DNA of 64,000 bases from Mustelus asterias (lineage: Eukaryota): positions 2,294,001 to 2,358,000 of the forward strand of contig NW_027590119.1 in the NCBI RefSeq assembly GCF_964213995.1, given 5' to 3'. The notes under the pieces were generated by a model. The model ran no database searches. It saw only the letters and a list, made by a program, of their open reading frames with translations, and was not told the origin of the DNA. The position numbers and the translations under genes were made by a program. Below are positions 10,605 to 50,950 of the stretch, in pieces (position 1 is the first letter of the stretch; the number at the start of each line of letters is the position of its first letter).

Positions 10605-11472
10605 TCATCTGTGAACTCGCTGGTGTTTCACCAGATTGGATGATTCGGTAAATCTCTTCCCGCACTCGGAGCAGGTGAACGGCCTCTCCCCAGTGTGAAT
10701 GTGCTGGTGTGTCAGCAGGTGGGATGATCGTGCAAATCCCTTTCCACACTCGGAGCAGGTGAACGGCCTCACCTCAGTGTGAATTTGTTGGTGTGTCAGC
10801 AGGTTGGAGGACTGACTGAATCCCTTCCCACACTTGGAGCAGATGAACGGCTTCTCCCCAGTGTGAACTCGCTGATGTACAGTGAGATGAGATGATCGCC
10901 TGAACCCAGTCCCACAGTGAGAGCACTGGAACGGTCTCTCCTCAGTGTGAACAAGCTGATGGGACATCAGTTCACCAGAACTTTTAAAGCACTTCCCACA
11001 CTCTGGACATTTAAAAGGTCTCTTGTCAGTGTGAACTCGTTGGTGTGTCTGAAGGTGGGTTGCTGTCCTGAAACTCTTCCCACACTAAGCAGCTGAACAG
11101 TGTGTACTCGGTGTGAATGCGCTGGTGCTCCCTCAGTCTGTGTGGGCTTTTAAAGCTCTTCTCACAACTGGAGCATTGAAACTCTCTCTTGTCAGTGTGA
11201 ACTTGCTGGTGTTTCAGCAGGTGGGATGAGCGAGTGAATCCGTTTCCACACACCGAGCAGGTGAACGGCCTCTCCCCGGTGTGGAGTCGCTCATGCAGCT
11301 GAAGGCAGATGAACTGAGCGAATCTCTTCCCACATACGGAACAAATGAACGGCCTCTCCCCGGTGTGTCTGCGTCGATGAATTTCCAGCTCAGATGGGGA
11401 TCTGAATCCCTTCCCACAATCCACACATTTCCACGGTTTCTCCCTGGTGTGAACGGTGCTTTTTGCTTCCAT
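10605..11472 (-). pseudogene. Class B C2H2 ZNF gene with a 2-bp frameshift near 11085
   Basis: ORFs 11026..11571 and 10605..10967 join into about 10 fingers if 2 nt are restored inside one CxxC. Confidence 0.75.
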
Positions 11473-11957
11473 GTTCAAAGGCCGATGATATTCAAGTCCT
11501 GATGAATCGAGTGACTCTGTCAGATTTTGATGTGATGTTTGGTTTGACTTTCCTGATCGTGAACCTTTCAAATATTCTGTAAAATGAATTTAAGACAGAA
11601 TCAAGGAAATATAAAAGAGAACCCAGAAAAACACAAAGGCAGGTTGTGAAATTGAACTAAATTAATCTTGTAATTTGTGGGGCCAGCGCTAGGAAAAAGT
11701 GACACTGAAAACTGCTGGATTCTCATAAAAACCCAACTGGTTCACTAATGTCCTTTAGGGAAGGGAACCTGCAACCCAGTCTGGGCCTACACAAGACTCT
11801 GGCTTCTATGGGAGGAGAGAAAGAGGCGAAGGAGAGGGTGAAAGAGATGAACTTCATAGATCTGCAACTGAATTTGAATTTCAAAAGAATCTCCCAAACC
11901 CATAACTCCACCCACTGGAAAGACAAGAGCAGCTGATGCCTGGAAAAACCATCACCT

Positions 11958-15788: not shown

Positions 15789-15989
15789 AGAGAAACAAAA
15801 ATATACCTGGGCCTAGTCCTGTTCCTGAATCCAGTCTTCATCTGTAACCTTTCCAGAGTCTGCTGCCTCCCTGGATTCACTTCCTTTCCCTTCAGTTGCT
15901 GCAAGTCCCCAATTTCCCCCAGAATGAGAAAAGAAATGGAAAGGGGGAAACATTGATTTCCTCCCAGATGTTGCCCAGAGGAGGGAGTT

Positions 15990-16420
15990 TGGACAACTTC
16001 CACATTGTGACATCATAATAGAGCTCTGCCTAAATCAGCCAATAGGAATCATTCTGCTCCGCGATGACGTCTCCGGCTTCCAGCGCACAGGCCCGGGCGC
16101 GCGGACCCGGGAACCCCGCTCCCACCCCCACCCATTGTTCCCCCTCCACCTCTTCCTGCCACGGTTTCCAATCAACCGGCTGACAGCTCCGGCCAGAGCG
16201 AGAAGCCGCGGAGTGATCGCCCCCTCCCTCGGCCCGGGACTGCGCATGTCCAAGGGAGAGGGGAAGATGCGCATGTGCGGGGGAAGCCAACCTTTTGACC
16301 TGCTGCTGAGGTATTGGCCAATGGAATGTTGGAGGACCGGAAGTTCTCTGGTCCTCCAGCCAATCAGAGCTCCCCCATTGTCTGAATGCGGAAGTGGACA
16401 ATGAGCTTCATATAAAGCAA
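15990..16420. promoter_or_regulatory. Bidirectional CpG-island promoter of a ZNF pair
   Basis: CCAAT boxes, TGACGT, NRF1-like TGCGCATG, ETS CCGGAAGT, dyad at 16330-16358; paralogue of 29735-30100. Confidence 0.75.
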
Positions 16421-16435
16421 TTTTTTTTTAAAGCG

Positions 16436-16648
16436 GCATCTCGGCCTTTTGGCTAAGATGCAAATGCGCCCAAGTCTGGAGGAGGATCCTCCCCCTTCTC
16501 CAATCAGCTTGGCTCATGTAGATCAGGCCCAGGACAGGGTGGTTTGGTCGCTTGCCCTGTCTTGCCAGCCTGGATCGGAAATGTCTCAACTTGTTGAGAC
16601 TCTGAATTGGATTTGATTTGATTGAATTGGAAAAGTATTTTAAAAAAG
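16436..16648 (+). ncRNA. U2 snRNA-derived structured element (SINEU-like or divergent U2 pseudogene)
   Basis: TCTCGGCCTTTTGGCTAAGAT equals U2 nt 7-27; several downstream hairpins; rest not alignable to canonical U2. Confidence 0.65.
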
Positions 16649-17357
16649 CTGCTCATTCCTGCCCAGCAAAGCTGCTGCTGCTCTCTCTCTGAATGAACAT
16701 TGAGCTTCAGACACAGACTCAAACTTCTCCAGTCATCAACATCTGTGAGTAAAACACTTTATTTTCTCTTCCTTTCCATTTCTTTTCTCATTCTGGGGAA
16801 ATTGGGGACTTGCAGCAACTGAAGGGAAACGGAGTGAATCCAGGGGGGCTGCAGACTCTGGAAAGGTTGGCCCAGGTCTCTCTTTCTCTTAAAGACATTA
16901 ACATCCTTTGCTCCCTCAGCTTGACACATTGATTTGTCTGGCTAAAAGGTCCCTTTCCTAATGTTCACAATTAAAGGGCTGGTTTCCCCAGGTGATGGCT
17001 GACATTTAAAAGGACAATAAATGAATATAGGACAGAGATATGCCTAGTGTTGTTATATTGTAGATTTGGTATATTATTTATGGTTCTGAAACAGAGTACA
17101 TTTATTATTAATTCTCGTTTTGTAATGTAGCACTGAAGCTATGTTATATATTTTCACTCATTGAGTCATTACAGCGCAGAAGGAGTCCATTCAGTAACTC
17201 GAATCCATGCCGACTCTCTGTAGAACAATCCAGTCAGTCCCATTCCCTTTCTCTATCCCCTTTCCCCTGCAACTTCATTTCCTTCATGTCCCCATCTAAT
17301 TTCTGAAATATATTAAAGGGGACAGTAAACTAATACAGGACAGAGACGTGTCTGATG

Positions 17358-18333: not shown

Positions 18334-19044
18334 GGTGAATATTAGATACAGCAGAGTGAGAATGGAGGGAGAGTGTGTGGGATGGAGATTCACAGCTTTT
18401 GGGGAATGAGAGAGGAAAGAATGTTCATTAGAATCATAGAATTGCTGCATCTTATCAACCGTCCCTGAGCTTTCACAATGAATCCCACTTCTGAGGACAC
18501 CCTTATCTCTGACTTGTCTGTACTGCTGGCAGTCTCACAAAGCAGCTGCCTGTGTGCTGATATGGGAGGCCCTGCTGGGCAAGTTTAATGCTCCATGACT
18601 GTGTCTTTAAAGAATACTCCATAAACTAGAAATGTAGATTTGAATTTCGATCATATTCTGAATTGCAATGTTTTTTTTCTAAATTGACTTACAGGATATT
18701 AGACAAGGAGAAATCAGACAGAAATCTCCAACATCACATCGAGATCTGACAGAGTGACTCGATTTCTTGGGACCTGAATATCATCGGCCTTTGAATCTAG
18801 CAGGAGAAATGCTTGTTTGGCCTCTTGGCTTCAAAAGATTGTAAACATCACTGTTACTAGAAATGCACTGAGATACACACACCCGAGTGAGAGTGTTCCA
18901 GTGCAGTGAGTGTGGAAAGAGCTTTAACCAGTTACACAGCCTGAAAATACATCGCAGCATTCACAGCGGGGAGAGATTGTACCCGTGACCTGTCTGAGAT
19001 TTAACTGATTGTTTAACCTGGAGAGTCACAAGGACACCCGCACC

Positions 19045-19971
19045 ATGGAGAAACCGTGGAAATGTGGGAACTGTGGGAAGGGATTCATATCCCCATCTCA
19101 GCTGGAAATTCATCAACGCAGTCACACTGGGGAGAGACCATTCACCTGCTCTGTGTGTGGGAAGGGATTCACTCAGTTATCCAGCCTGCAGAAACACAAT
19201 CTCACTCACACCAATGAGAGACCATTTAAATGCTGTGACTGTGGGAGTGGTTTTAAAAGCTCTCAGGATCTGGTGTCCCACCAGCGCATTCACACTGAGG
19301 AGAGACCGTTCAGCTGCTCTCACTGCACAAAGAAATTTAGAACTTCATCCAACCTGCAGATACACCAGCGAGTTCACACTGGGGAGAGACCGTTCACCTG
19401 CTCTGTGTGTGGGAAGGGATTCACTCAGTCATCCAGCCTGAAGACACACCGAGTCATTCATACCAATGAGAGACCCTTTAAATGCTGTGACTGTGGGAAT
19501 GGCTTCAAAAGCTCTCAGAAACTGATCGTCCACCAGCGCATTCACACTGAGGAGAGGCCGTTCAGCTGCTCTCACTGCTCAAAGAGATTTAGAATATCTT
19601 CAGCATTGCTGAACCATCAGCGAGTTCACACCAGGGAGAGACCATTCACCTGCTCGGTGTGTGCGAAAGGATTCACTCAGTTATCCAGCCTCCGCAGACA
19701 CAACATCACTCACACCCCGGAGAGACCCTTTAAATGTTCTGACTGTGGGAGTGGCTTCAAAAGCTCTCATGAACTGATTACCCACCAGCGCATTCACACT
19801 GGGGAGAGACCGTTCAGCTGCTCTGACTGTGGGAAGGGATTCGCTCAGTCATGCAACCTACGGGTACATCAGCGAGTTCACACTGGGCAGAGGCTGGTCA
19901 CCTGCTCTGTGTGTGGGAAGGGATTCACTCGGTCAGCAAACTTGGTGAAACACCAGCGAGTTCACAAGTGA
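19045..19971 (+). CDS. C2H2 zinc-finger protein (11 fingers, class A)
   Basis: Intact array; gcaccATGG; splice acceptor at ~18694. Confidence 0.92.
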
Positions 19972-22762: not shown

Positions 22763-23339
22763 CTGAATGGAATATTCCACACAACCCCTTCGTTAAACGG
22801 GAAGGAGAAAAGAGAGGCTTTGACCTTTGGATGACCTCATCACCAACTACAGAAACCTTAAAGCTGACCATTCTGTAAAAGTTTAAAAACTTTATTTTTA
22901 TAAAACACAGAGTAAGAAGCAGGTGAAAAGTAACGATGGACGTTGTGACTGACATCAGAAACATTGATTGACCGGATAAACACTCACTACATCACAGAGC
23001 GATCCTCAAACATTAAAGAATTGACCCACAATAAGGAATGAGAGAGCCTTATAAAAAGGGGCAGGAGTTTACACAGAGAGGTGACACCCACAGCTGCTCA
23101 GGATGATGGAATTCAGTTCAGGAAGGGGATAAAGTGAGAAGATTTTGCGATTCAAGACAGAAGTATTGAACAATCTGGAATCAGTGCTTCTCGAGTTTGC
23201 TGACTAGCCGAACACTTCAATTAATCTCATCATAAAAACTCCCAGTGTAAATAACATGGATTTGGCTGACAAATGTTGAAGTGTTGGTTTAGAGCCACAA
23301 GTTTTGACTTCCCATTTGAGCCTGGGGCACCTTTCTGTC

Positions 23340-23620
23340 TCTCTGTTGCTCGTGTCAATGACAGCCAGGTGACGGAGCTGAGGGCTGAATTCAGCTGCGA
23401 ATAACAGGCCTGCGCCCCAGTTGGGAAACTGCCCTGGGCGTTGCACTAATAGAGAGACAGGAAGGCGCTGGAGGACTGACTGGGAAATGGGCCTCCAACC
23501 AATCGGGGCTTGGGAGGGGGGTGACCGAGGCTGATGGTGACGTGACCCTGGGTTCAGTGTCCCTGTGTCCAAAGCGGGGAGTCACAGGAACAGGGGACAG
23601 AGGAGCTGAAGAAACACGAT
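23340..23620. promoter_or_regulatory. Orphan ZNF-type promoter remnant
   Basis: Dyad at 23469-23497, CCAAT, GTGACGTGAC; GC-rich. Confidence 0.5.
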
Positions 23621-26437
23621 TTGTGTCCAGAACATTGTGAACATCCTTTTACTCTGGTTGTCTTTGATCTTCAAGTCATTTTCTGTTTGTTTTAACCATG
23701 TTCTGTTTCATTAATAAACTTTCATCAGTAAAAATATTTGATTTTTCTGGTCTTTTCCTGATGAGATTGATGCACTTTAGGGAAAGTGGGTGAGAGGGGT
23801 TGGCAGGCTCTTTAACAGAAAGTGAGCCTCTCTAAGGTAATTGGCAAAGGAGCCAGAGGGGGAGATGAGATTTTATTTTTGACTCAGTGATGTTAGAAAA
23901 TGGGGTTCAGGGCGTCAATTAATCCTTTCTCCCCTTTTCCCAAACTCTGAAATGATTCCCAGTGATAACCCTTATTGGTGACAGTGGTTAGATTTTATTC
24001 AGTATCAATAAGAGCCGACACAGGCTAATGTCTGAGCAGTCGTATCAAAGTGCAGCAGCATTACCATTACACTCTGGGTAGAAGCAGCATCTCCATGGAA
24101 ATGCTCCCTGCTCTGCCCCAGATGCCATGGCACCAGTCAATGCAATATGTAAAACCTCGACTAATCTCTGTGCTCGGGGAATCCCTTCTTATACTTTGTT
24201 ACAGCACAAAGTCTATGGAGACTGATTTTACCCAATCATTGCCCGGCTAACATTTGAACGGACCAATTACAAAACCTGTCATTGAACCATCTGTATCCGC
24301 CCATGCCATGTCAAACTCTCAAACAATTGTCTTCCCACGCTCCATCCCTGGTACAGGGAGTCAGCATTCCCATGCCAAGTAGGAAAACATGGTGGCCTTG
24401 GCACACAGGTGTCATCCAGGATTCAAGGCACTCTTGTTTTCTCTGTCCTCCGGGAGCTGTTTATCTCCCTGCTCCCACACAGCAAGTCATCTGTTCTCAG
24501 CTCTGCTAGATTTCTGCTGAAGTTTTGCCCATTTTACACCTTTCGGATCAATAAAACATTTGGTCAAAGACCCAAACCACAATTTCCCATCCTGTCACCT
24601 GTCAACCATCCTTACCCAGAGTGTAATCACAACAGGAATAAAAACAGGAGACGTGTAACAATCAAATTCAAAATCAATGCACAGCCAGTCATAGAATTTA
24701 ATCTAATGTTCACTAATTAGCAAGAAAACCCGAAGGAGGGGGTCCCCCAGGATTCTTACAGTCCATACCTTGAGGGGGGAGAACTCTCTCTCTCTGACCC
24801 CTCACTCAATTTCACTCCGTTATTTTCCAGTTCTGTTCTGGCCCTGCCTGGGGTAACATCTACTCGATCTTTTCTTCTGAAGGAGCACCGTGAGTTCTAG
24901 GTTACGAGTACATAAGGACAGATGCTTCAAGCAACAGATCAAGCATGGATGCAAATGATTCTCCAGCTCTCCCTTTACCTGTATCCAACTTGTGGATAGT
25001 TCTTACTCAGTATTATTTCTCCCAAGTGGCTAATTGTCCTAATCTATAATATTATCCATTTTACTTTAATTTTCCTCATGTGCAGTGTGTTTAATTGGAT
25101 CCTGATTGTTTTGAACTCAGTTTCTCTCTGGAGTGTGTGTCAGTGCCTTGATGATGTCACAATGTTGTCTCAATCCCCTGGTCACATTAACCATTTCATC
25201 TCCTGCTGTGTCTCAAGTAGCTGTGTGTGTTTGGGACCCGCTCTTCACTCCATCTCACCATGAATTTAGGCTTGCTATTTTTCACACGTAACAAATCACA
25301 TCTGTACACTCACTCCGGTGTCCCAAAATCATGTCACACATTCTTAACTCTCAGAAGTGTTGATGAAAAGATCAATATGTCTGTCTTTCTTATCTCCTCC
25401 TGTTATAGTGCTGATATTTCATATCGTGGCTGGGCTTTCAAATGTGGATTTCGTTTTAACAGAGTTCATGGACAATGATGTTAAAAGTTCCAAGAGAAAA
25501 TATCCACCTCTTCATCCCATCTCACGTTTTAGAGGTGTTGATGGAAAGGAGGTCATTGATATTGTTAAATATCATAAGAATAAAAAAACTACAAATTCAG
25601 ACAATACTGAGATGTCAATCATTAAGCAGGTTATTGATTGTGGAGTAAAACCATTGACATATTTGCAACCGGTCTTTTCAAACTGGGCTATTTCCCTGTA
25701 AAATGAAAATAGACAAAGTTACTCCATGGTTTAAAGCTGGTGGCAAACGTGATATTACTAATTACAGGAGAGTGTCCTCACTTTTCTTGTTTTTCAGAGA
25801 AAAGGGAAGTCATTTGCTAAATGGTCTGATAATTCCATTGCTCAATGTAACTCACTGTGTAATAGTCAGACCAAGTCGGTCTATCTCATTATCACTGATG
25901 GAATTTGTGGAGAAAATGACGAATGCTGTGGACAAAAAGACAATTTACAATAGAGGTTTCTACTGATCTTACACAGATTTTGATACAATTGACCATGGAA
26001 TATTACTTAAAACACTGGAAACAAGGGATTAGGGGAGTAGTGAATAAGTGGCTCAGACGTTATTTGGAAAATCTCAACAATTTGTAACAGTAGATTATGT
26101 GAATCAGATTTTGTGAATATTCTGTGTGGAGTCTCACAGGGATCTGTTTTGGGCCTTAAATTGTTTATTTTATATATTAATGACATTTGGAATGTATCAA
26201 AGTTATTACAATTAGTTTTGTTTGCAGATGATGCCAATACTTTTTATTCTGTGTGGGATCTTCAAGAGCTTATTGAAAGTGTTAGTGCTGAATTGGAGAA
26301 AATAAAAATATTGTTTGTCAAAAATGAATTGTGACTGACTCTGAGTGGAACGAAGTTTATGTTATTTGGTGAAGTAAATCCCTTGGTTAATATGATAAAC
26401 AATGGCAACATTTACAAAAATAGAAGAGGGGTCAGAC

Positions 26438-28241: not shown

Positions 28242-29210
28242 TCAGTCCTGGGTGTGATTAACAGCAGAATCCAATGCTTGGAATCGCTTGTGAATTCGCT
28301 GGTGTCTCAGCAGGTGGGATGATCGTGTGAATCCCTTTCCACATTCAGTGCAGGTAAATGGTCGCTCCCCAGTGTGAAGTCGCTGGTGTGTCAGCAGGTT
28401 AGACAATCGACTGAATCCCTTCTGACACACAAAGCAGTTAAATGGCCTCTCCCCTTTGTGAACTCGCTGGTGTGAAATCAGGTTGGATGAATCACTGAAT
28501 CCCTTGCTGCACATTGAGCAGGTGAATGGCCTCTCCCCGGTGTGGACTCGCTGGTGTGTCTGCAGGCTAGATGCCTGACTAAATCCCTTTCCACACAGTA
28601 AGCAGGTGAACGGCCTCTCCCCAGTGTGAGTTCGCTGGTGTGAAAACAGGTTGGACGAATCACTGAATCCTTTACCACACTCAAAGCAGGTGAAGGAAGC
28701 CTCCCCAGTGTGAAGTTGCTGGTGTCTCAGCAGGTTGGCGGAGTTAGTGAATCCCTTCCCACACACAGAGCAGGGAAATGGCCTCTCTCTGGTGTGAACT
28801 CGCTGGTGTGAATACAGGTTAGATGACTGAGCAAATCCTTTACCACACATGGAGCAGATAAACGGCCTCTCCCCAGTGTGAACTCTCTGGTGTGTCTGCA
28901 GTGTGGATGAATCGCTGAATCCCTTCTCACACATGGGGCAAGTGAATGGCCTCTCTCCATTGTGAACTCGCTGGTGTATCAGCAAGTGCGATGACTGAGT
29001 GAATCCCTTCCCACACTGAGAGCAGGTGAATGGCCTCTCCCCAGTGTGAACTCGCTGGTGTGTCCGCAAGATCGATAACCGAGTGAATCCTTTCCCACAA
29101 TTGGAGCAGGTGAATGGCCTCTCCCCGGTGTGACTGCGTCGATGAATTTCCAGCACTGATGGGGAACGGAATGACTTTTCACAGTCCTCACATTTCCATG
29201 GTTTTTCCAT
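28242..29210 (-). CDS. C2H2 zinc-finger protein (11 fingers, class A); frame stays open upstream to 29357
   Basis: Intact array starting MEKPWKC. Confidence 0.92.
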
Positions 29211-29719
29211 GATCCGTGTGTCTTTGTCTCTCCTGCAGTTTTCACAATACGTGCACTGGAACACCGTCACTCGGGTTGCACGGGCCTCGATGCTTTTCTG
29301 TTCACACCAATGGTTCACCCAATTCAAACAGCTATACGTTTCTTCTTCCAGATTCAAACCGATGACATTCAGCTGCCATGAATTGAGTGACTGTTAGATC
29401 TTGACATTTCTATCAGTAAATCCTCTCCTTCTAATATCCTGTAAAAAGAATTTACAAAAGTCATCACTGTCAGAACAAGATAGAAATTCAGATCAGACAA
29501 TTCTAATTCATGTGGAACTCTGCAAAGGATGTCAATATCTTTAAGAGAGAGAGAAACCTGGGCCAACCTTTCCAGAGTCTGCAACCTCCCTGGATTCACT
29601 TCCTTTCCCTTCAGTTGCTCCAAGTCCCCAACTTCCCCGAGAATGAGAAAAGAAATGGAAAGGGGGAAACATTGATTTCCTCCCAGATGTTGCCCAGAAG
29701 AGGGAGTTTCACTGAGTCT

Positions 29720-30150
29720 GAATCTGAATCAATCGAACTTCCGCATTGTGACGTCCACAATGGAACCTGCCTGAATGAGCCAATAAGAATCAGTCTCTTC
29801 CGCAATTACGTCATGGTGTTCCAGTGCGCAGGCCCGGGCGCGCGGACCCGGGAGCCCCGCCCCCACCCATTGTTCCCTCTCCCCCTGCACCTCTTCCAGG
29901 CAACCGGCTGGCGGCTCCGGCCACAGCGAGAAGCCGCTCGGTGATCTCCCCCTCCCCCCGGCCCGGGGATTGCGCATGTCCAAGGGAGAGGGGAAACTGC
30001 GCATGTGCGAGGTCGACCGCCTCCTGACCTTCATGCTAGGGTGTTGACCAATGGGAAGAGTTGGAGGACCGGAAGGACTCTGGTCCTCCAGCCAATCAGG
30101 TCTTTGTGGCACTCAGATTGAGCTGCACACAGACTGAAACTTCCTCCTGT
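29720..30150. promoter_or_regulatory. Bidirectional CpG-island promoter of a ZNF pair
   Basis: Paralogue of 15990-16420; dyad at 30062-30090; lies between divergent ZNF genes. Confidence 0.78.
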
Positions 30151-30151
30151 C

Positions 30152-30436
30152 GGAAGGGAGTTATTTTGATGATATGGATTACAGCTTCATATCCCAGATG
30201 AAGCGAGGTACCTAAGTATGTTTTATTCTCCAAACAAGCGATCAGATGACATCGAACTCTGGCGGATAACTAATTTATCACTTATTTCCTTAAAAGAGGC
30301 CAACATCTAGCTCTTATTTTGTACTTTGATTTTTGTTCGGGTTGTTCCCCCTCCTTTTGGGGAGCTGCCCCTTTTACTTTGTCCTGATTTAAGTTGAGTT
30401 TGTTCATTTGTTTTGACCTAAAAGAGGCCAACATCT
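30152..30436 (+). mobile_element. Two tandem short insertions, possibly Tx1-like 3' ends
   Basis: Absent from the paralogue at ~16735; both end TAAAAGAG followed by GCCAACATCT. Confidence 0.45.
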
Positions 30437-30567
30437 GTGAGTTTCTTTTCTCATTCTGGGGGAAATTGGGGACTTGCAGCAATTGAAGGGAAAGGAAGTG
30501 AATCCAGGGAAGCTGCAGACTCTGGAAAGGTTGGCCCAGGTCTCTCTCTCTCTCTTAAAGACATTGA

Positions 30568-31022
30568 CATAGAAACATAGAAGGTAGGAGTAGGAGGAGG
30601 CCATTTGGCCCTTCGAGCCTGCTCCGCCATTCATTACGATCATGGCTGATCATCCAACTCAGTAGCCTAATCCTGCTTTTTCCCCATAACCTTTGATCCC
30701 ATTCGCTCCAAGTGCTTTATCCAGCCATCTCTTGAATACATTCAATGTTTTGGCATCAATTACTTCCTGTGGTAATAAATTCCACAGGGTCACTACTCTT
30801 TGGGTGAAGAAATGTCTCCTCAAATCCATCCTAAATGGTCTACCCTGAATCCTCAGACTGTGACCCCCTGTTCTGGACTCCATCGCGAACATCCTCCCTG
30901 CATCTATCCTGTCTCGACCTGTTAGAATTTCATAAGTCTCTTTGAGATTCCCCCCTCATTCATCTGAACTCCAGCGAAAACAATCCAAACCCAGTCAGTC
31001 TCTCCTCATACATCAGTCCCGC
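30568..31022 (-). mobile_element. CR1 LINE 3' part
   Basis: RHFFTQRVVTLWNLLP motif; ttctatgt tail. Confidence 0.88.
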
Positions 31023-31184
31023 GATTCCCTCAGTGTTCCAGTGACCCGACTGTGGAAAGAGCTTTAACCAGTTACACAGCCTGAAAAAACATCATACCAT
31101 TCACAGTGCGGAGAAATGTACATGTGTTTTGTGTGAGGCTCCAACTGACCGTCCAATCTGGAGAGACAAATGAATAACTGAATC

Positions 31185-32195
31185 ATGGAGAAAGCATGGA
31201 CATATGATGATTGTGGGATGGGATTAATGTTCCCATTTGAACTGGGAAATGATCAATACAGTCACACTGCGGAGGGACCGTTCACCTTCTCCATTTGTGG
31301 AGATGGATTTACTCAGTTATCCAGTCTGTTGACACACCAGCCAGTTCATTCCGGGGAGAGGCCATTCAGATGCTCCATGTGTGGGAAGGAATTTGCTGAC
31401 TCATGTGACCTGCTGGCGCATGAGCAAGTTCACACTGAGGAGAGCGCATTCACCAGGACTGTGTGTGGCAACGGCTTCACTCAGTCATCCCAGCTCACTG
31501 AACATCAACATGTACACAGTGATCAGAGACTTTTTAAATGTTCTGACTGTGAGAAGAGCTTTAAAAGCAAAAAATATCTGCAAATACACCAACGACTTCA
31601 CAGTGGGGAGAGACTGCTCAGCTGCTCTGAGTGTGGGAAGAGATTCGTTCAGTCATCTCAGTTGCTAATACACCAGCGAAGTCACAGTGGGGTGAGGCCA
31701 TTCACCTGCTCTGTGTGTGGAAAGGGATTCACTCAACCACACCACCTTCGGACACACCAGCGAGTTCACACTGGGGAGAGGCCATTCATCTGCTCTGAGT
31801 GTGGGAAGCGATTCACTCACTCATATCAGCTTCTGTTGCACCAGCGAGTTCACACTGGGGAGAGGCCGTTCACCTGCTCTGTGTGTGCTAAGGGATTCAT
31901 TCAGTCATCAGATCTACAGGTGCACCAGCGAGTTCATACTGGAGAGAATCCATTCACCTGCTCCGTATGTGGGAAAAGATTCTCTCAGTCATCGCAACTC
32001 CTGAAACACCAGCAAGTTCTCACTGGAGAGAGGCCATTCACCTGCTCTGACTGTGGGAAGGGATTCACTCAGTCATCCCATCTGCTGAGGCACCAGCGAG
32101 TTCACACTGGGGAGAGGCCGTTCACCTGCTCAATGTGTGGGAAGGGATTCAATCAGTCATCACACCTTGTGACACACCAGCGAGTTCACAAATGA
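31185..32195 (+). CDS. C2H2 zinc-finger protein (12 repeats, about 8 intact)
   Basis: Open 336-aa ORF with degenerate N-terminal fingers. Confidence 0.85.
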   Translation: MEKAWTYDDCGMGLMFPFELGNDQYSHTAEGPFTFSICGDGFTQLSSLLTHQPVHSGERPFRCSMCGKEFADSCDLLAHEQVHTEESAFTRTVCGNGFTQSSQLTEHQHVHSDQRLFKCSDCEKSFKSKKYLQIHQRLHSGERLLSCSECGKRFVQSSQLLIHQRSHSGVRPFTCSVCGKGFTQPHHLRTHQRVHTGERPFICSECGKRFTHSYQLLLHQRVHTGERPFTCSVCAKGFIQSSDLQVHQRVHTGENPFTCSVCGKRFSQSSQLLKHQQVLTGERPFTCSDCGKGFTQSSHLLRHQRVHTGERPFTCSMCGKGFNQSSHLVTHQRVHK

Positions 32196-35509: not shown

Positions 35510-35959
35510 TCATTCGTAATGTTTAAAAAGTAATTTTTCAGTGTGAACATGTTGATGCAAACTGAGAGTGTCTAACCGAGTGAATTCCTTCCCACACTTG
35601 GAGCAAGGGAACGGCCTCTCCCCAGTGTGAACTCGCTGGTGTCTCATCAGGGTGGCTGACTGAGTGAATCCCTTCCCACACACACAGCAGATGAACGGCC
35701 TCTCTCCAGTGTGAGTGTGTTGGTGTTGTTTCAAGTGCTTTTTGCTCTTAAAGCTCTTCTCACAGTTGGAACATTTTAAATGTCTCTTATTGGAATGAGA
35801 GCGTTGGTGTGACTGCAGGTGTTGTGACTGAACAAAACCTTTTCCACACACACAGCAGATGAACGGTCTCTCTCCTGTGTGACTGCGACGATGAGTTTCG
35901 AGATGGGAAGGATAATTAAATCTCTTCCCACAGTCCTCACATTTCCACGGTTTCTCCAT
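35510..35959 (-). CDS. Short C2H2 ZNF (5 fingers, class A); decayed fingers continue to ~35385
   Basis: MEKPWKC start; premature end inside the array. Confidence 0.75.
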
Positions 35960-36345
35960 AGTGCCAGTGTCCTTGTGTCTCTCCAGGTTGGATGATCAGT
36001 TGAAGTCTTGTCCACACACAGAACACATGTACAGTTTCTCCCAGCTGTGAATGGTGTGATGTTTCTTCAGGCTGTGTAACTGGTTTAAGCTTTTTCCACA
36101 GTCAGTTCACTGGAACACTCTCACTCGGGTGTGTGTGTGTGTGTCTCAGTGCTTTTCCAGTCACACTGATGTTTGAAATCTTCTCCTCCAGGCAGAACAG
36201 ACAAACATTTCTCCTTCCACGTTCAAAGTCTCAGGATATTCAGGTCCTAATAAATCGATACTCAGTCTGATTTTATGTGATGTTTCCTCACCTCACCTGT
36301 AAAAAGAGTTAACAAAAATCGTCACGGTCAATCGAGATAGAAATT

Positions 36346-37029: not shown

Positions 37030-37825
37030 CATCCTCCAGTGGCTGAGCCAGGATGGGGCCGTTAACCTGGGCCTGTTCCCGGGAGGGAGAAGCCCCGCAG
37101 CTGCAAACCAGGGAGCTGACAATGATTCTGAAGGGTTTGCGGATCCACAAAGTGTTTCCAAATCCTCCCAGCCACCGCCTAACGCTGACTCCGCTTCTCC
37201 GGGACAAACAAGCGCCAAGGACACTGCGCATGCTCCACATCACAATGCCCCAGGGTGTGATTGACGGCCGCTTGGGACCAATAGGAAGGGGCGGGGCTGG
37301 AGGACCCAGCAGGAGCGGCTAGTCCTCCAACCAATCGGAGTGAATGAGGGGCGGGGCTGAGGTGTCCCCATACAACGCACGGGAAGGCGTTCGCATGCGC
37401 AGTAATGTTACAGTCTGGAGCATGCGTTGTAAGCAACGGCGTTTGCAACACGCGCAATGTGGGTGATCGCAATCGGAGAGAAGTTCCTCTGTCTCATCAG
37501 CAGCCGGTAAGGATGCGGAAACATAGAGGGAGTAATGGAACCGGCGGATGGACGTAGAGGGTTTCTAAATACCTGGTGAAGGCCTCAAATCTCGAAAATG
37601 AGCCCGTCGGTCTGTGTTTGCAGCTTCCGGTCTTTTTCCCGAGACGAGGCTCAGGTTAACGGCCGCCATCTTGATTCAGCAGGGAGGAGAGCGCATGCGC
37701 GGTGTCTTGGTGACGCAACAGCGAGTGGGCGGGGCCTCACGTTTCTGCTTCCCCTCCAGGTCCTAGCTCCCGGTCCAATAGCACAATGAGCTATTAATAG
37801 GTTTCTAAACAGCTTCACCCACCCT
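37030..37825. promoter_or_regulatory. Bidirectional CpG-island promoter of a ZNF pair
   Basis: NRF1 sites, GC boxes, CCAAT, YY1 GCCGCCATCTT, dyad at 37298-37329. Confidence 0.75.
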
Positions 37826-40690: not shown

Positions 40691-40837
40691 CATGTAATTC
40701 TTTGTAAACTTATTTTACAGGAAATTGAAGAGAAGGATCTGCAGTCTGGATGATCGAATCTCACGTCAGACAGAGTCAATCGGTTCATCGGGATCTGAAA
40801 ATTTGTGCATCTGAAGGGATTTAATTGACCATCTCAG

Positions 40838-42781
40838 TTGGAAACTGGTGAGAATCTGTTTCCTTGCCCCTCCTGTGGGAAGGGATTGATACAGCTGGAA
40901 AACATGCTGACACGACAGCGAGCTCGCAATAGTGAGAGTTCATTCACCTGCTCCGTGTGTGGGAAGAAATTCATGTGTTCGTCCAACCTGCTGGCTCACC
41001 AACTCGATCACATTATTCAGAAGCCTCTTCAAAGCTCTGACTCTGGGGAAAGCATTGAAACCTCTGAGGAACAGGCCCAACACCAGCTCCTTCACACTGA
41101 CGAGAGACCGTTCAGCTGCTCCCACTGCGGGAAGAGGTTCAGCCAGTCCTCCCGCCTTGCAGAGCACCAGCTCCTTCACACACACGCCAGACCGTTCAGC
41201 TGCTCCCACTGTGGGGAGTCGTTCAGCAACTCAGTGCATCTCACTGAGCATCAACCAGTTCATACCAAGGACAGGCCATTCAGCTGCTCCCAGTGTGGGA
41301 AGAGATTCACTCAGTCCTCCCACTGCACCGTTCACCAACTGGTTCATTCTCAGAAGAGACATTTTAAATGCTTTAAATGTGAGAAGACCTTCAAAAGAAG
41401 GATTAGTCTGCTGAGACACCAGGACACTCACACCGGGGAGAGGCCGTACCCCTGTTCTGTTTGTGGGAAGAGATTCGCTCATTCATCTCATCTTCTGACA
41501 CACAAGCGAGTTCACACTGGGGAGAGGCCTTTCCTCTGCTCCCTGTGTGGGAAGAGATTCACTCGATTTTCACACCTTTTGACACACAAGAGTGTTCACA
41601 CTGGAGGGAAACCATTCACCTCCTCAATGTGTAGAAAGGAAGAAGTTCAATCAACTGACCAGCTGACACACCAGCGAGTTCACACTGGGGAGAAGCTGTT
41701 CACCTGCTCGGTGTGTGGGAAGGAATTCACTCGGTCTTACTATCTTCTGAGGCACCGGCGAGTTCACACTGGGGAGAGGCCATTCCTCTGCTCCGTGTGT
41801 GGGAAGATGTTTCCTCATTCATCCCAGCTTGTGATACACGAGCGTGTTCACACAGGGGAGAGGCCTTACGTTTGCCCTGTGTGTGGGAAAGCATTTGCTT
41901 CTTTACAACACCTGCTGAAACATCGGCCTGTTCACACAGGGGAGAAGCCATTCTCTTGCTCCATTTGTGGCAAGAGATTCACTCAGTCGTCTGACCTGCT
42001 GAGACACCAATACATTCACACAGGGGAGAGGCCGTTCACCTGCTCTGTGTGTGGGAAGGGATTCATTGGTTCATCCTGCCTGCAGACACACCAGCGAGTT
42101 CACACCGGGGAGAAGCCGTTCACCTGCTCTGTGTGTGGGAAGGGATACACTCAGGTATCCAGCCTGCAGAGACACCAGCGAGTTCACACTGCGACAGAAC
42201 CGTTCACCTGCTCCCTGTGTGGGAAGGGATTCACTGATCCATCCCACCTGCAGAGACACCAGCGAGTTCACACTGGAGAGAGGCCGTTCCTGTGCTCTGT
42301 GTGTGGGAAGGGATTCGCTCAGTCGTCTAGCCTGCTGAGACACCAACGCATTCACACCGGGGAGAAGCCGTTCATCTGCTCTGTGTGTGGGAAGGGATAC
42401 ACTCAGGTATCCAGCCTGCAGAGACACCAGCGAGTTCACACTGCGACAGAACCGTTCACCTGCTCCCTGTGTGGGAAGGGATTCACTGATCCATCCCGCC
42501 TGCAGAGACACCAGCGAGTTCACACTGGGGCAAAACCTTTCAACTGCTCCATGTGTGGGAAGGGATTCACTGATCCATCCCGCCTGCAGAGACACCAGCG
42601 AGCTCACACTGGGACAGAACCGTTCACCTGCTCCCTGTGTGGGAAGGGATTCACTGATCCATCCCGCCTGCAGAGACACCAGCGAGTTCACACTGGGGCA
42701 AAACCTTTCAACTGCTCCATGTGTGGGAAGGGATTTAATCAGTATTACAGCCTGCTGAAACATAGACGACTTCATGTGTGA
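40838..42781 (+). CDS. Long C2H2 zinc-finger protein (23 repeats, about 20 intact; first ATG at 40904)
   Basis: 647-codon open array; splice acceptor at ~40720. Confidence 0.9.
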   Translation: METGENLFPCPSCGKGLIQLENMLTRQRARNSESSFTCSVCGKKFMCSSNLLAHQLDHIIQKPLQSSDSGESIETSEEQAQHQLLHTDERPFSCSHCGKRFSQSSRLAEHQLLHTHARPFSCSHCGESFSNSVHLTEHQPVHTKDRPFSCSQCGKRFTQSSHCTVHQLVHSQKRHFKCFKCEKTFKRRISLLRHQDTHTGERPYPCSVCGKRFAHSSHLLTHKRVHTGERPFLCSLCGKRFTRFSHLLTHKSVHTGGKPFTSSMCRKEEVQSTDQLTHQRVHTGEKLFTCSVCGKEFTRSYYLLRHRRVHTGERPFLCSVCGKMFPHSSQLVIHERVHTGERPYVCPVCGKAFASLQHLLKHRPVHTGEKPFSCSICGKRFTQSSDLLRHQYIHTGERPFTCSVCGKGFIGSSCLQTHQRVHTGEKPFTCSVCGKGYTQVSSLQRHQRVHTATEPFTCSLCGKGFTDPSHLQRHQRVHTGERPFLCSVCGKGFAQSSSLLRHQRIHTGEKPFICSVCGKGYTQVSSLQRHQRVHTATEPFTCSLCGKGFTDPSRLQRHQRVHTGAKPFNCSMCGKGFTDPSRLQRHQRAHTGTEPFTCSLCGKGFTDPSRLQRHQRVHTGAKPFNCSMCGKGFNQYYSLLKHRRLHV

Positions 42782-45982: not shown

Positions 45983-46852
45983 TTATTTATGAACTTGCTG
46001 GTGTCTCAGCAATGCGGATGACTGAGTGAATCTCTTCCCACACTTGGAGCAGGTGAATGGTCTCTCCCCGGTGTGAACCCGCTGATGGACAGTGAGATGA
46101 GATGTTCGCCTGAACCCAGTCCCACAGTGAGAGCATCTGAATGGTTTCTCGTCAGTGTGAACTTGTTGATGGGACACCAGTTCCTGCGAGGTTTTAAAAC
46201 ATTTCTCACACTTCAGACACTTAAACGGTCTCTCATCAGTGTGGCCTCTTTGGTGTGTAATTAGGATGGATGAATTAACAAATCCCTTCCCACACTGGGA
46301 GCAGGTGAATGGTCTCTGCCTCGTGTGAACTTGCTTGTGTGTCAGCAGGGTGGATTTGTGAGTGAATCCCTTTCCACACTCAGAGCAGGTGAATCGCTTC
46401 TCCCCGGTGTGAACTCGCTGGTGTGTCAGCAGCGTGGATGACTGAGTGAATCCCATCCCACACACAGAGCAGGTGAATGGTCTCTCCCCAGTGTGAATTA
46501 GTTTGTGTTTAATCAGGGTGGATGACTGAGTGAATCCCTTCCCACACAAAGAGCAGGTGAATGGCCTCTGCCCAGTGTGTGTGCGCTGGTGATTCTGCAG
46601 GGTGGATAACTTAGTGAATCCCTTCCCGCAGTCCGAGCAGGTGAACGGCCTCTCCCCGGTGTGACCACGCCGATGGGTTTCCAGCTGGGATGGGTAATTG
46701 AATCCCTTCCCACAGACCCCACATTTCCACGGCTTCTCCTCATCATGACTGCATTTATGTTTGAACAGGCCAGATGATTGGTTGAAGTCTTGTCCACAAA
46801 CGGAACACGAGTCAGGTTTCTCCCCACTGTGAACGGTGCTTTTTCCTTCCAT
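45983..46852 (-). CDS. C2H2 zinc-finger protein (10 fingers, class [14 protein letters not shown] start)
   Basis: Intact array. Confidence 0.9.
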
Positions 46853-47643
46853 GTTCAAAATCCGATGATATTCCGGTCACAAAGAATTAGGCGACTCTGT
46901 GAGATCCTGATGTGGAGTTTGGCTTCAGTTTCCCAACTGCAAATCCTAATCTTCTAAGACACGATGAAATTGATTTAAAACAGAAAAAAAGGGAGTGAGA
47001 GAGAACACGCAAAAACAGGCTGTGAAATTGAGCTGAATGAATGGGGTCATTTGTGGGGCCGGCATTAAGAAAAAGTGGCCATGAAAGCTGCTGGATTGTC
47101 ATAAAAACCCAACTGATTCACTCATGTGCTTCAGGGAAGGAAACCTGCCACCTGGTCTGGACTGACACATGAACCAATATCTATCGAAGGGGTGAGAGAG
47201 AGGTGGAAGAAGCAGAGGGTGAAGGAGAGGGTTTCTCTACATCTACATCCTGACCAGAACTCTGACAGAATCTCCTAATCTCTCAACCTCCACCATTTAG
47301 CTGGACCAGGGTAGTACGTGCATGTGAAGATCATTACCTCCTAGTTCCCCTCCAACTCATACAACATCCTGACTTGTCTGACATCAATTACTGCATGAGC
47401 AGAAGTTTCCAGCATTTAAATATCAGGAAGACTGGAATCATTGTCTTCAGTCCCCACTACAAACTTCACCACCCTCACAACTGACTCCGCCCTCTCCATG
47501 TTAAATATCTGAAGCTGAACTAATTTGTTCACAACCATGGTGTCTTACTTGAGAAGAGTTTTAGACCACATATCCACATCATCACCAAAATCATCTGTTT
47601 CCACCTCAGTAACATCCCCCAACTCTGTCTTAGCCTCAGTTAA

Positions 47644-48629: not shown

Positions 48630-49150
48630 ACATTGCCCCAAACAAAGATGGCGACTGCGCATGCGCCGTGTTGCTGGTGCGCCGACTGAAGACGGCGACT
48701 GCGCACGCGCCGTGTTGCTCGTGCCCCGATGACGATGGCCCTGATTAACCCGGGTCTGTAACTGGGAGAATGCTGAGGCCCTGCTCTGCGCTGAGGGCCG
48801 GGACCATCCTCTGATATCGCCAGGTTCTTTTTAAGAGTTCGCAGTTTACGTAACATGTTTACGACGCCTCTCCAAACCCCCGCCTGGTCTATCGCGTCCT
48901 CCGCCCCGCCATTCCCACCTTTACTGATTGTGGATCCGAGAAAGAATGTCTCCACTGCCATTAATCACACTGCGCATGCTTCACTCAGCCCCGCCCCTCA
49001 TTCGCTCCGATTGGTCGGAGGACCAGCTGCTCCCTCGCGATCGTCCAGCTTCCTCTCCTTCTATTGGCCCGGAGCTGCCGTCAATCAGTCCCCGGGCATT
49101 GTGAGGTGTCGGGTGAGAGGTCAGTGCCGGGGGGCGGGGTTTACAATGAA
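48630..49150. promoter_or_regulatory. Bidirectional CpG-island promoter of a ZNF pair
   Basis: YY1 AAGATGGCG next to NRF1 TGCGCATGCGC (duplicated), GC boxes, reversed dyad plus CCAAT at 49010-49047. Confidence 0.75.
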
Positions 49151-50323: not shown

Positions 50324-50950
50324 TCAACCAACCTGGAGAGAAACAAGGATACCAGCACCACAGAGAAACCGTGTAAATGTGGGGATTGTGGAAAGGAATT
50401 CAAGTATCCATCCCTGCTGGAAATTCATCGACGCAGTCACACTGGAGAGAAACCATTCACCTGCTCTGTATGTGGGAAGGGATTTACTCAGTCAACCATT
50501 CTGCTGAGACACCAGCGATTTCACACAGGGGAGAGACCGTTCCCCTGTTGTGGGTGTGGGAAGGGATTCACTCAGTCATCTGAGCTTCTGATACACTGGA
50601 GAGTTCACACTGGGGAGAAGCCATTCACTTGCTCTGTTTGTGGGAGGGGATTCACTCAGTTATCCCAGCTGCTGACACACCAGCGAGTTCACACTGGGGA
50701 GAGGCCATTCACCTGCTCTGTGTGTGAGAAGCGATTCACTAATTCATCAAACCTGCTTACACACCAGCGAGTTCACACTGGCAAGAGACCATTCATTTGT
50801 TCCATGTGTGAGAAAGGATTCACAACTTCATCCAACCTTTTGACACACCAGCGAATTCACACCTGGGAGAGGCCATTCACCTGTTCAGTGTGTGAGAGGG
50901 GATTCAGTCAGCTAGCCCACCTGCTGACACACCAGCAAGTTCACAAGTGA
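50324..50950 (+). pseudogene. Class A ZNF with 7 intact fingers but start codon ATG changed to ACA (50360)
   Basis: gcaccACAgagaaaccg versus gcaccATGgagaaaccg in paralogues; frame otherwise open. Confidence 0.7.

Follow-up and report, generated by a model that had tools for sequence, protein, structure and literature searches.

Promoters with two CCAAT boxes are known from human ChIP experiments, in which a class of NF-Y sites spaced by 43 bp has been found; the available text of that report gives the partner factor as unknown and describes no dyad (PMC4889920). Another arrangement is the DECA-CCAAT composite, which involves TALE proteins (PBX/PREP), NF-Y and Sp2 and has a canonical distance of 11 bp, although the models presented in the available part of the preprint still allow bridging by Sp2 at 12 (bioRxiv 10.64898/2026.02.16.706105). 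The BTB-zinc-finger protein ZBTB24 is reported, in the portion of the article at hand, to recognise a 12-bp site, CT(G/T)CCAGGACCT (PMC6895263). With regard to lineage-specific zinc-finger (ZNF) gene families, the zebrafish FiNZ-ZNF 'sharp peak' genes have a TATA-based promoter design, and the main text of that report, as available, does not mention sharks (PMC10547256).

The window analysed here (the whole 64-kb stretch of DNA) comes from contig C87, in a genome of 3.68 Gb. Across the window, C2H2 zinc-finger exons form a cluster on both strands, interspersed with LINE fragments. Associated with these exons is a dyad, i. e. two inverted arms separated by a spacer, located between CCAAT boxes. 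Modules with a 14-nt spacer are designated family A, and those with an 11-nt spacer family B.

The module resembles the human double-CCAAT class in having two boxes on the same strand, and in 34 of 43 copies with an 11-nt spacer these are 42 to 44 nt apart (44 nt in 27, 43 nt in 5, 42 nt in 2). It differs in that the boxes of family A are 53 to 60 nt apart, and the human class, in the text available, comes without a dyad. The match in distance of family B may be due to chance, and NF-Y binding is here a prediction. As in the DECA-CCAAT composite, GAnnGAC was found upstream of the first CCAAT in 45 of 81 family A copies, but at 12 nt in 43 of them, at 11 nt in 2, and it was absent from the other 36. 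This composite accounts for the module's upstream portion and not for its dyad. With ZBTB24, the half-site has AGGACC in common, and inverted half-sites at a variable distance would fit a BTB-zinc-finger dimer; however, on comparison by eye with the site as given in the available text, the half-site has GG where CC is needed (positions 4-5) and A/G where T is needed (position 12), and this candidate was rejected. The FiNZ-ZNF genes are likewise a duplicated ZNF family with a common promoter design, but here TATA-like words were found after 0 of 37 family A copies and 3 of 43 11-nt copies, and the available text on these genes makes no mention of the dyad.

No published description of the motif was found in the open literature searched. 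Four papers containing an arm and CCAAT string were apparently unrelated, judging by title and abstract. The half-site may resemble that of ZNF263, but a literature search for this link gave 0 papers.

Copies of the dyad in the window

All five copies of the original prediction are present. Those at 16330-16358 and 30062-30090 are perfect, a strict pattern matching twice in the window and in none of 100 shuffles. The other three are degenerate, with 1 to 3 arm changes each, and lie at 23469 (arms TGGAGGACT and GGGCCTCCA), at 37298 (right arm AGTCCTCCA) and, on the reverse strand, at 49016 (arms TGGACGATC and GGTCCTCCG). The CCAATC expected 1 nt past the right arm yielded 5 matches, for a chance mean of 0.01, and 0 of 100 shuffles reached 5. 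A second CCAAT, said to lie usually upstream, was found in 4 of the 5 copies (42, 44, 53 and 53 nt between boxes), with CTAAT at this place in copy 23469. Spacers do vary, as had been noticed, but mainly between families, their conservation within a family being 92-93% per base. What did not stand is the claim that the copies occur in promoter types which otherwise differ: these types are homologous descendants of one module rather than independent contexts, and copy 23469 is found 3′ of an array.

Copy 1 belongs to family B, and all its elements are on the forward strand: an upstream CCAAT box (16318-16322), the dyad with 9-nt arms and an 11-nt spacer (16330-16358), and CCAATC 1 nt past the right arm (16360-16365). 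The end of its left arm together with the start of the spacer (16336-16343) forms what we take to be an ETS-like site. A non-coding exon 1, common to paralogues, would end with a GTGAG donor at 16736-16750 (+), and a C2H2 zinc-finger exon with 11 fingers lies downstream at 19009-19968 (+). An insertion (16424-16465) is present within this presumed exon 1; 3 matches in 1.46 Mb, together with high contig depth, suggest that it is a repeated element. It contains a 21-nt stretch which presumably resembles the 5′ end of U2 snRNA, Rfam reporting nothing there.

Copy 3, also of family B, spans 30048-30097 (+), with CCAAT, the perfect dyad (30062-30090) and CCAATC, the boxes being 44 nt apart. It is placed between a divergent C2H2 exon of 11 fingers (28245-29393, reverse strand) and a downstream one of 8 fingers (31182-32192, +). 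Its presumed exon 1 is split, immediately ahead of the donor, by an interruption of about 270 nt (30152-30420) that closes with a second copy of the exon-end word. Copies 1 and 3 are both flanked by inverted blocks, 15810-15980 / 16720-16900 and 29520-29710 / 30415-30570 respectively, which correspond to the exon-1 end and intron start of head-to-head paralogues; both leftward blocks have GG instead of the GT donor.

Copies 4 and 5 have the family A module. In copy 4 (37259-37336, +), a DECA-like GAnnGAC stands 12 nt before CCAAT (37278), followed by a GC box (37288-37297), the dyad with its 14-nt spacer (37298-37329) and CCAATC (37331-37336); a C2H2 exon of 5 fingers is divergent from it (35513-35995, reverse strand) and one of 20 fingers lies downstream (40829-42778, +). 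Copy 5, on the reverse strand (49009-49086), comprises a DECA-like site (49086), CCAAT (49067-49063), a degenerate dyad (49047-49016) and CCAATC (49014-49009). Downstream of it is a C2H2 exon of 10 fingers (45986-46876, reverse strand), and divergent from it one of 7 fingers (50324-50947, +).

The remaining copy defines a family C, with a degenerate dyad and CCAATC (23469-23504, +) without upstream CCAAT, 3.5 kb 3′ of a ZNF array. Several clusters have this module 3′ of their ZNF arrays, with shared flanks (23290-23890 in the window); it may be a remnant, or serve as promoter for some other transcript. Elsewhere in the window, on the reverse strand, a ZNF exon split over two frames (10608-11589, 4 + 5 fingers) represents a frameshifted copy.

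Architecture of the module families

The order of elements in family A is GAnnGAC, 12 nt, CCAAT, GC box, dyad, CCAATC, GC box, then CATGCGCA in 25 of 37 copies, and 16 of 37 have a word of ATGGCG type at about +44. Given these downstream words, transcription of family A is likely to start ~40 nt past the second CCAAT, which would leave the dyad outside the transcript. In family B the order is CCAAT, dyad, CCAATC and an exon-end/donor signal, the latter ~64 nt past CCAATC in 22 of 43 copies (at exactly 64 nt in 12). CCGGAWG covers the left-arm end and spacer start in 65 of 127 11-nt copies. The NRF1, YY1, Sp and ETS labels that we attach to neighbouring sites of the two families are assumptions of ours.

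Families A and B have blocks in common beyond the arms, after the first and after the second CCAAT, from which it follows that they descend from one promoter. When 13 representatives with spacers of 11 to 15 nt and unalignable flanks, which had been picked by their arms, were compared, the arms and both CCAAT boxes were the main shared blocks. Among the matches listed, a large family B subfamily has a fixed change in the right arm. Two copies are without left arm and spacer altogether.

Abundance and distribution in the genome

A genome-wide scan placed the motif far above control, with ~2,000 copies in 3.68 Gb, the counts below not being independent since copies are paralogous. The composite pattern gave 1,586 matches (control 0), and right arm plus CCAATC 2,001 sites (control 4), ~1,536 of which carry a perfect left 7-mer. 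Perfect 8-nt dyads with spacers of 5 to 25 nt numbered 1,973 (control 44); spacers of 14 nt (1,176) and 11 nt (699) together accounted for 1,875 of them. Searches in metagenome contigs and in viral contigs gave 0 matches each. Taking the matches listed in contig order, only 1 of the 2,001 sites is on C1-C11, after which they are dense on C12, C23, C68, C71 and small contigs. This clustered distribution means that the motif is not a dispersed repeat.

A sample of 1.464 Mb was studied more closely, made up of the 64 kb of the window plus 1.4 Mb (400 kb around the window and 1 Mb chosen for dense matches). It contains 86 copies, 43 with a spacer of 11 nt, 37 of 14 nt and 6 of other lengths. A left arm was found at 71 of 82 right-arm sites, compared to 462 of 13,306 by chance.

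Several local amplifications were observed. Family A modules often have 60-bp tandem duplications of GC box, dyad and CCAAT, in 2 to 3 units (C71 clusters, e. g. L050:5054-5114 and L140:2325-2487), and adjacent tandem pairs number 9 among the 86 copies. On contig C68 (L031-L032, G000:C68:178000-194300), a 59-bp minisatellite has GC box, dyad (13-nt spacer) and CCAATC as its unit; 47.8 copies with 65% matches follow each other head to tail in one array, near the contig end and without ZNF exons. A histone-cluster origin of these dense copies was rejected, as no histone frame was found in 50 loci scanned and the copies are the minisatellite. Finally, a segmental duplicate exceeding 10 kb (L034-L038, L231, L233) is found on many small contigs (C28-C55), L037 and L038 being 96% identical; it carries one family A module and an 80-bp tandem array, with no ZNF array within 5 kb.

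Position relative to zinc-finger genes

The 1.464 Mb hold 128 finger arrays, and collapsing tandem copies left 78 copies of the motif. Enrichment at ZNF genes was confirmed: 62 of the 78 face a ZNF 5′ end within 8 kb, compared to 37.4 +/− 3.9 for random positions (0 of 1,000 trials reaching 62). In 50 of them the 5′ end is faced in the direction of the module itself (null 22.8), and 26 have ZNF 5′ ends on both sides (null 8.3). Seen from the arrays, a copy was upstream in 76 of 117 and downstream in 35 of 117. Head-to-head module pairs 300 to 400 nt apart were encountered in 5 cases.

Copies lay in CpG-rich sequence in 43 of 78 cases, against 16% of random places, and the dyad was found in 47 of 95 CpG islands 5′ of arrays against 13 of 53 other islands. 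Half-site 8-mers, present in 51 to 52 of these 95 islands, came ahead of the GC box (48) and were outranked only by CATGCGCA words (57 to 64 islands).

Exceptions exist. All 4 family C copies, including the one at 23469, are 3′ of ZNF arrays. For 20 outlier stretches, 13 had no ZNF array within 10 kb; by content, 7 had a finger array, 3 belonged to the minisatellite region, 5 to one segmental duplicate and 5 to none of these (one with a finger fragment). Of 15 further outliers, 6 had an array of 7 or more fingers within 8 kb and 9 did not. Other host genes at the outliers were sought with Pfam (53 + 19 frames) and rejected, as nothing came up but fragments of reverse transcriptase, C2H2 fingers and a single CHCH match below threshold. 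We conclude that the motif, where checked, lies mostly just upstream of clustered zinc-finger genes, and that it is a real, non-random, family-wide motif of presumed promoters.

Conservation of arms and spacers

Since copies chosen by their arms would bias a comparison between arms and spacer, copies found by flank-only profiles were used (37 of family A, 40 of family B). In family A, mismatches were fewer in the arms (20/666) than in the spacer (39/518, p = 4×10−4), but significance was lost when CpG columns were left out (18/629 against 16/333, p = 0.14). In family B the figures were 41/720 and 36/440 (p = 0.11). On a tree built from the flanks, changes per site amounted to 1.1 in arms and 2.8 in spacer for family A (p = 0.006), and to 2.2 and 2.5 for family B (p = 0.39). 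Compared to the flanks (2 to 8 changes per site), arms were conserved in both families (p = 3×10−5 in A, 10−5 in B); the CCAAT boxes had 0.4 to 1.4 changes.

Among 986 flank-anchored family A sites genome-wide, a number that includes at least 25 unrelated ones among the matches listed, 640 keep all 14 arm-core bases and 389 all 14 spacer bases. For family B, 28 of 30 further flank-anchored loci (2 of other lengths were dropped) had 31/504 mismatches in arms and 13/308 in the spacer. In family A, positions that vary in one arm vary in the other too (rho = 0.83, p = 0.005), most of all position 5 on both, whereas the left and right tolerance profiles of family B show no correlation (rho = 0.03).

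The conservation of the arms that had been noticed was borne out with respect to the flanks, and in that all families share them. With respect to the spacer it was seen in the 14-nt family only (640 against 389 perfect sites), arms in the 11-nt family being no more conserved than their spacer (p = 0.11 to 0.39), the outcome that the original prediction had itself named as speaking against it. The whole core is constrained, and arms stand out in family A and between families, not within family B. An ETS-like site may be what holds the family B spacer.

Discussion

We favour, with a probability of roughly 0.55, the interpretation that the arms are two inverted half-sites for a candidate DNA-binding protein, lying within a double-CCAAT (NF-Y) promoter spread by gene duplication. 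The dyad would stand in the middle of a CCAAT-dyad-CCAAT module located ahead of the C2H2 zinc-finger exons in the clusters, and duplication of these genes likely spread the module, the promoter travelling with each copy. NF-Y would occupy both CCAAT boxes, and the arms, with their core GGAGGAC, are likely read as inverted half-sites by one putative protein beside it. Next to these, family A would bind TALE/Sp-type and NRF1-type factors, and family B an ETS factor. The arms may be bound by a flexible dimer (for example of the BTB-zinc-finger type) or by two monomers, either of which would explain why spacers of 11 to 15 nt are tolerated, and a start site would be activated some 30 to 50 nt past the second CCAAT. 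The original proposal of a dimeric factor cooperating with NF-Y is consistent with the promoter position, the lock to CCAAT and the constraint above flanks, but is weakened by family B, where arms do no better than the spacer. Parts of the arms, we assume, overlap NF-Y flank and ETS preferences.

A passenger origin of the symmetry has to be weighed against this. The dyad could be what is left of an inverted duplication that the founding promoter underwent long ago, kept only through its overlap with real sites, or its place between them (the NF-Y flank on the right, an ETS-like site and GC box on the left), while the symmetry itself is idle. We hold this to be rather doubtful, even though the family B spacer is conserved as well as the arms, the ETS-like CCGGAWG often ends the left arm, and the left arm and spacer are missing from two copies. 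Additional pairing within both spacers also fits a longer inverted repeat as origin, and many copies are young (median pairwise identity 82-91%). It fits less well that the GGAGGAC core on both sides lies outside the neighbouring sites and is nevertheless kept across families whose spacers and flanks cannot be aligned, or that a mirror-symmetric ancestor ATTGG...CCAAT had 0 matches. Moreover, the matched tolerance of both arms in family A is expected if one protein reads both. As a special case of two half-sites read by one protein, the reader could be one or a few effector-less ZNF proteins of the cluster itself, binding the arms and co-regulating the family. The motif is confined to these ZNF genes where checked, and tetrapod KRAB-ZNFs target promoters and other KZNFs according to the available text of PMC10547256, which can be counted in favour. 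Adjacent R-H-x finger pairs (crudely TGG-AGG) were in excess, 6 against 2.0 +/− 1.4 in shuffles, but tandem finger duplication explains this equally well, and the other 3 of 4 readings of this crude finger code gave 0, 0 and 1 pairs (expected 0.4, 0.05 and 1.8) in 129 arrays. Of 236 KZNFs, only 11 had finger-code predictions that agreed with experiments (PMC10547256, available text), and a fast-evolving family would be a poor candidate for reading an invariant site. Such feedback appears quite unlikely.

Pairing of the arms with each other, as a DNA cruciform or, should family B start upstream, as a hairpin in exon-1 RNA, is very improbable in our view. Perfect copies do fold (stems of 9 to 12 bp, −11.1 kcal/mol), the commonest family B change leads to a G-U pair, and the family B exon-1 end lies only ~64 nt past CCAATC, so that the start site could lie upstream. 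Degenerate copies, however, fold weakly (−2.7 to −4.8), and none of 60 changed pairs was compensated, at a divergence which gives this comparison little power: 43 changes break pairing, 16 give a wobble and 1 has both sides changed without pairing. The wobble share (27%) is within the 25-35% of a simple neutral model, and deep families keep the same letters instead of swapping pairs. Cells changed on both sides were 0 of 252 and 0 of 279 (33 of 37 family A copies), i. e. 0 of 531, a comparison of low power as shuffles expect only 0.2 to 0.4. Rfam gave 3 sub-threshold miRNA-like hits in 15800-50000, none at the element. Hardly tenable, and largely refuted, is the notion that the dyad belongs to a transposable element (MITE, Helitron, LTR), as its terminus or as a motif inside it, and has no connection with the genes. 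It would account for the 130-nt inverted blocks around copies 1 and 3, and for copies in segmental duplicates and the 59-bp minisatellite without ZNF genes. Yet sites are clustered and not dispersed, pairwise homology ends raggedly over 20 to 500 nt with no sharp shared ends, the inverted blocks belong to head-to-head paralogues and have unequal ends, and modules are oriented towards ZNF 5′ ends.

We conclude that recurrence of the motif reflects gene duplication and not independent recruitment. What is new here is an undescribed dyad; a double-CCAAT module of a duplicated gene family is of a known kind. If the arms are passengers, we are dealing with an ordinary duplicated promoter. At the other extreme, an undescribed dimeric factor, possibly encoded in the cluster, might act with NF-Y as a single master switch for the effector-less zinc-finger genes of the shark, well over a thousand in number, its site being amplified further in the 60-bp tandem promoter units and the minisatellite; this we regard as unlikely. 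The effector-less C2H2 zinc-finger repertoire of cartilaginous fishes seems to be very large, and the literature found contains no description of how it is controlled. A single module of 30 to 50 nt with ~2,000 copies offers one probe for the factor by which the entire family may be switched, and can mark the short first exons of these genes for annotation. It may also lead to the partner factor of double-CCAAT promoters with boxes ~43 bp apart, for which none is named in the available text of PMC4889920.
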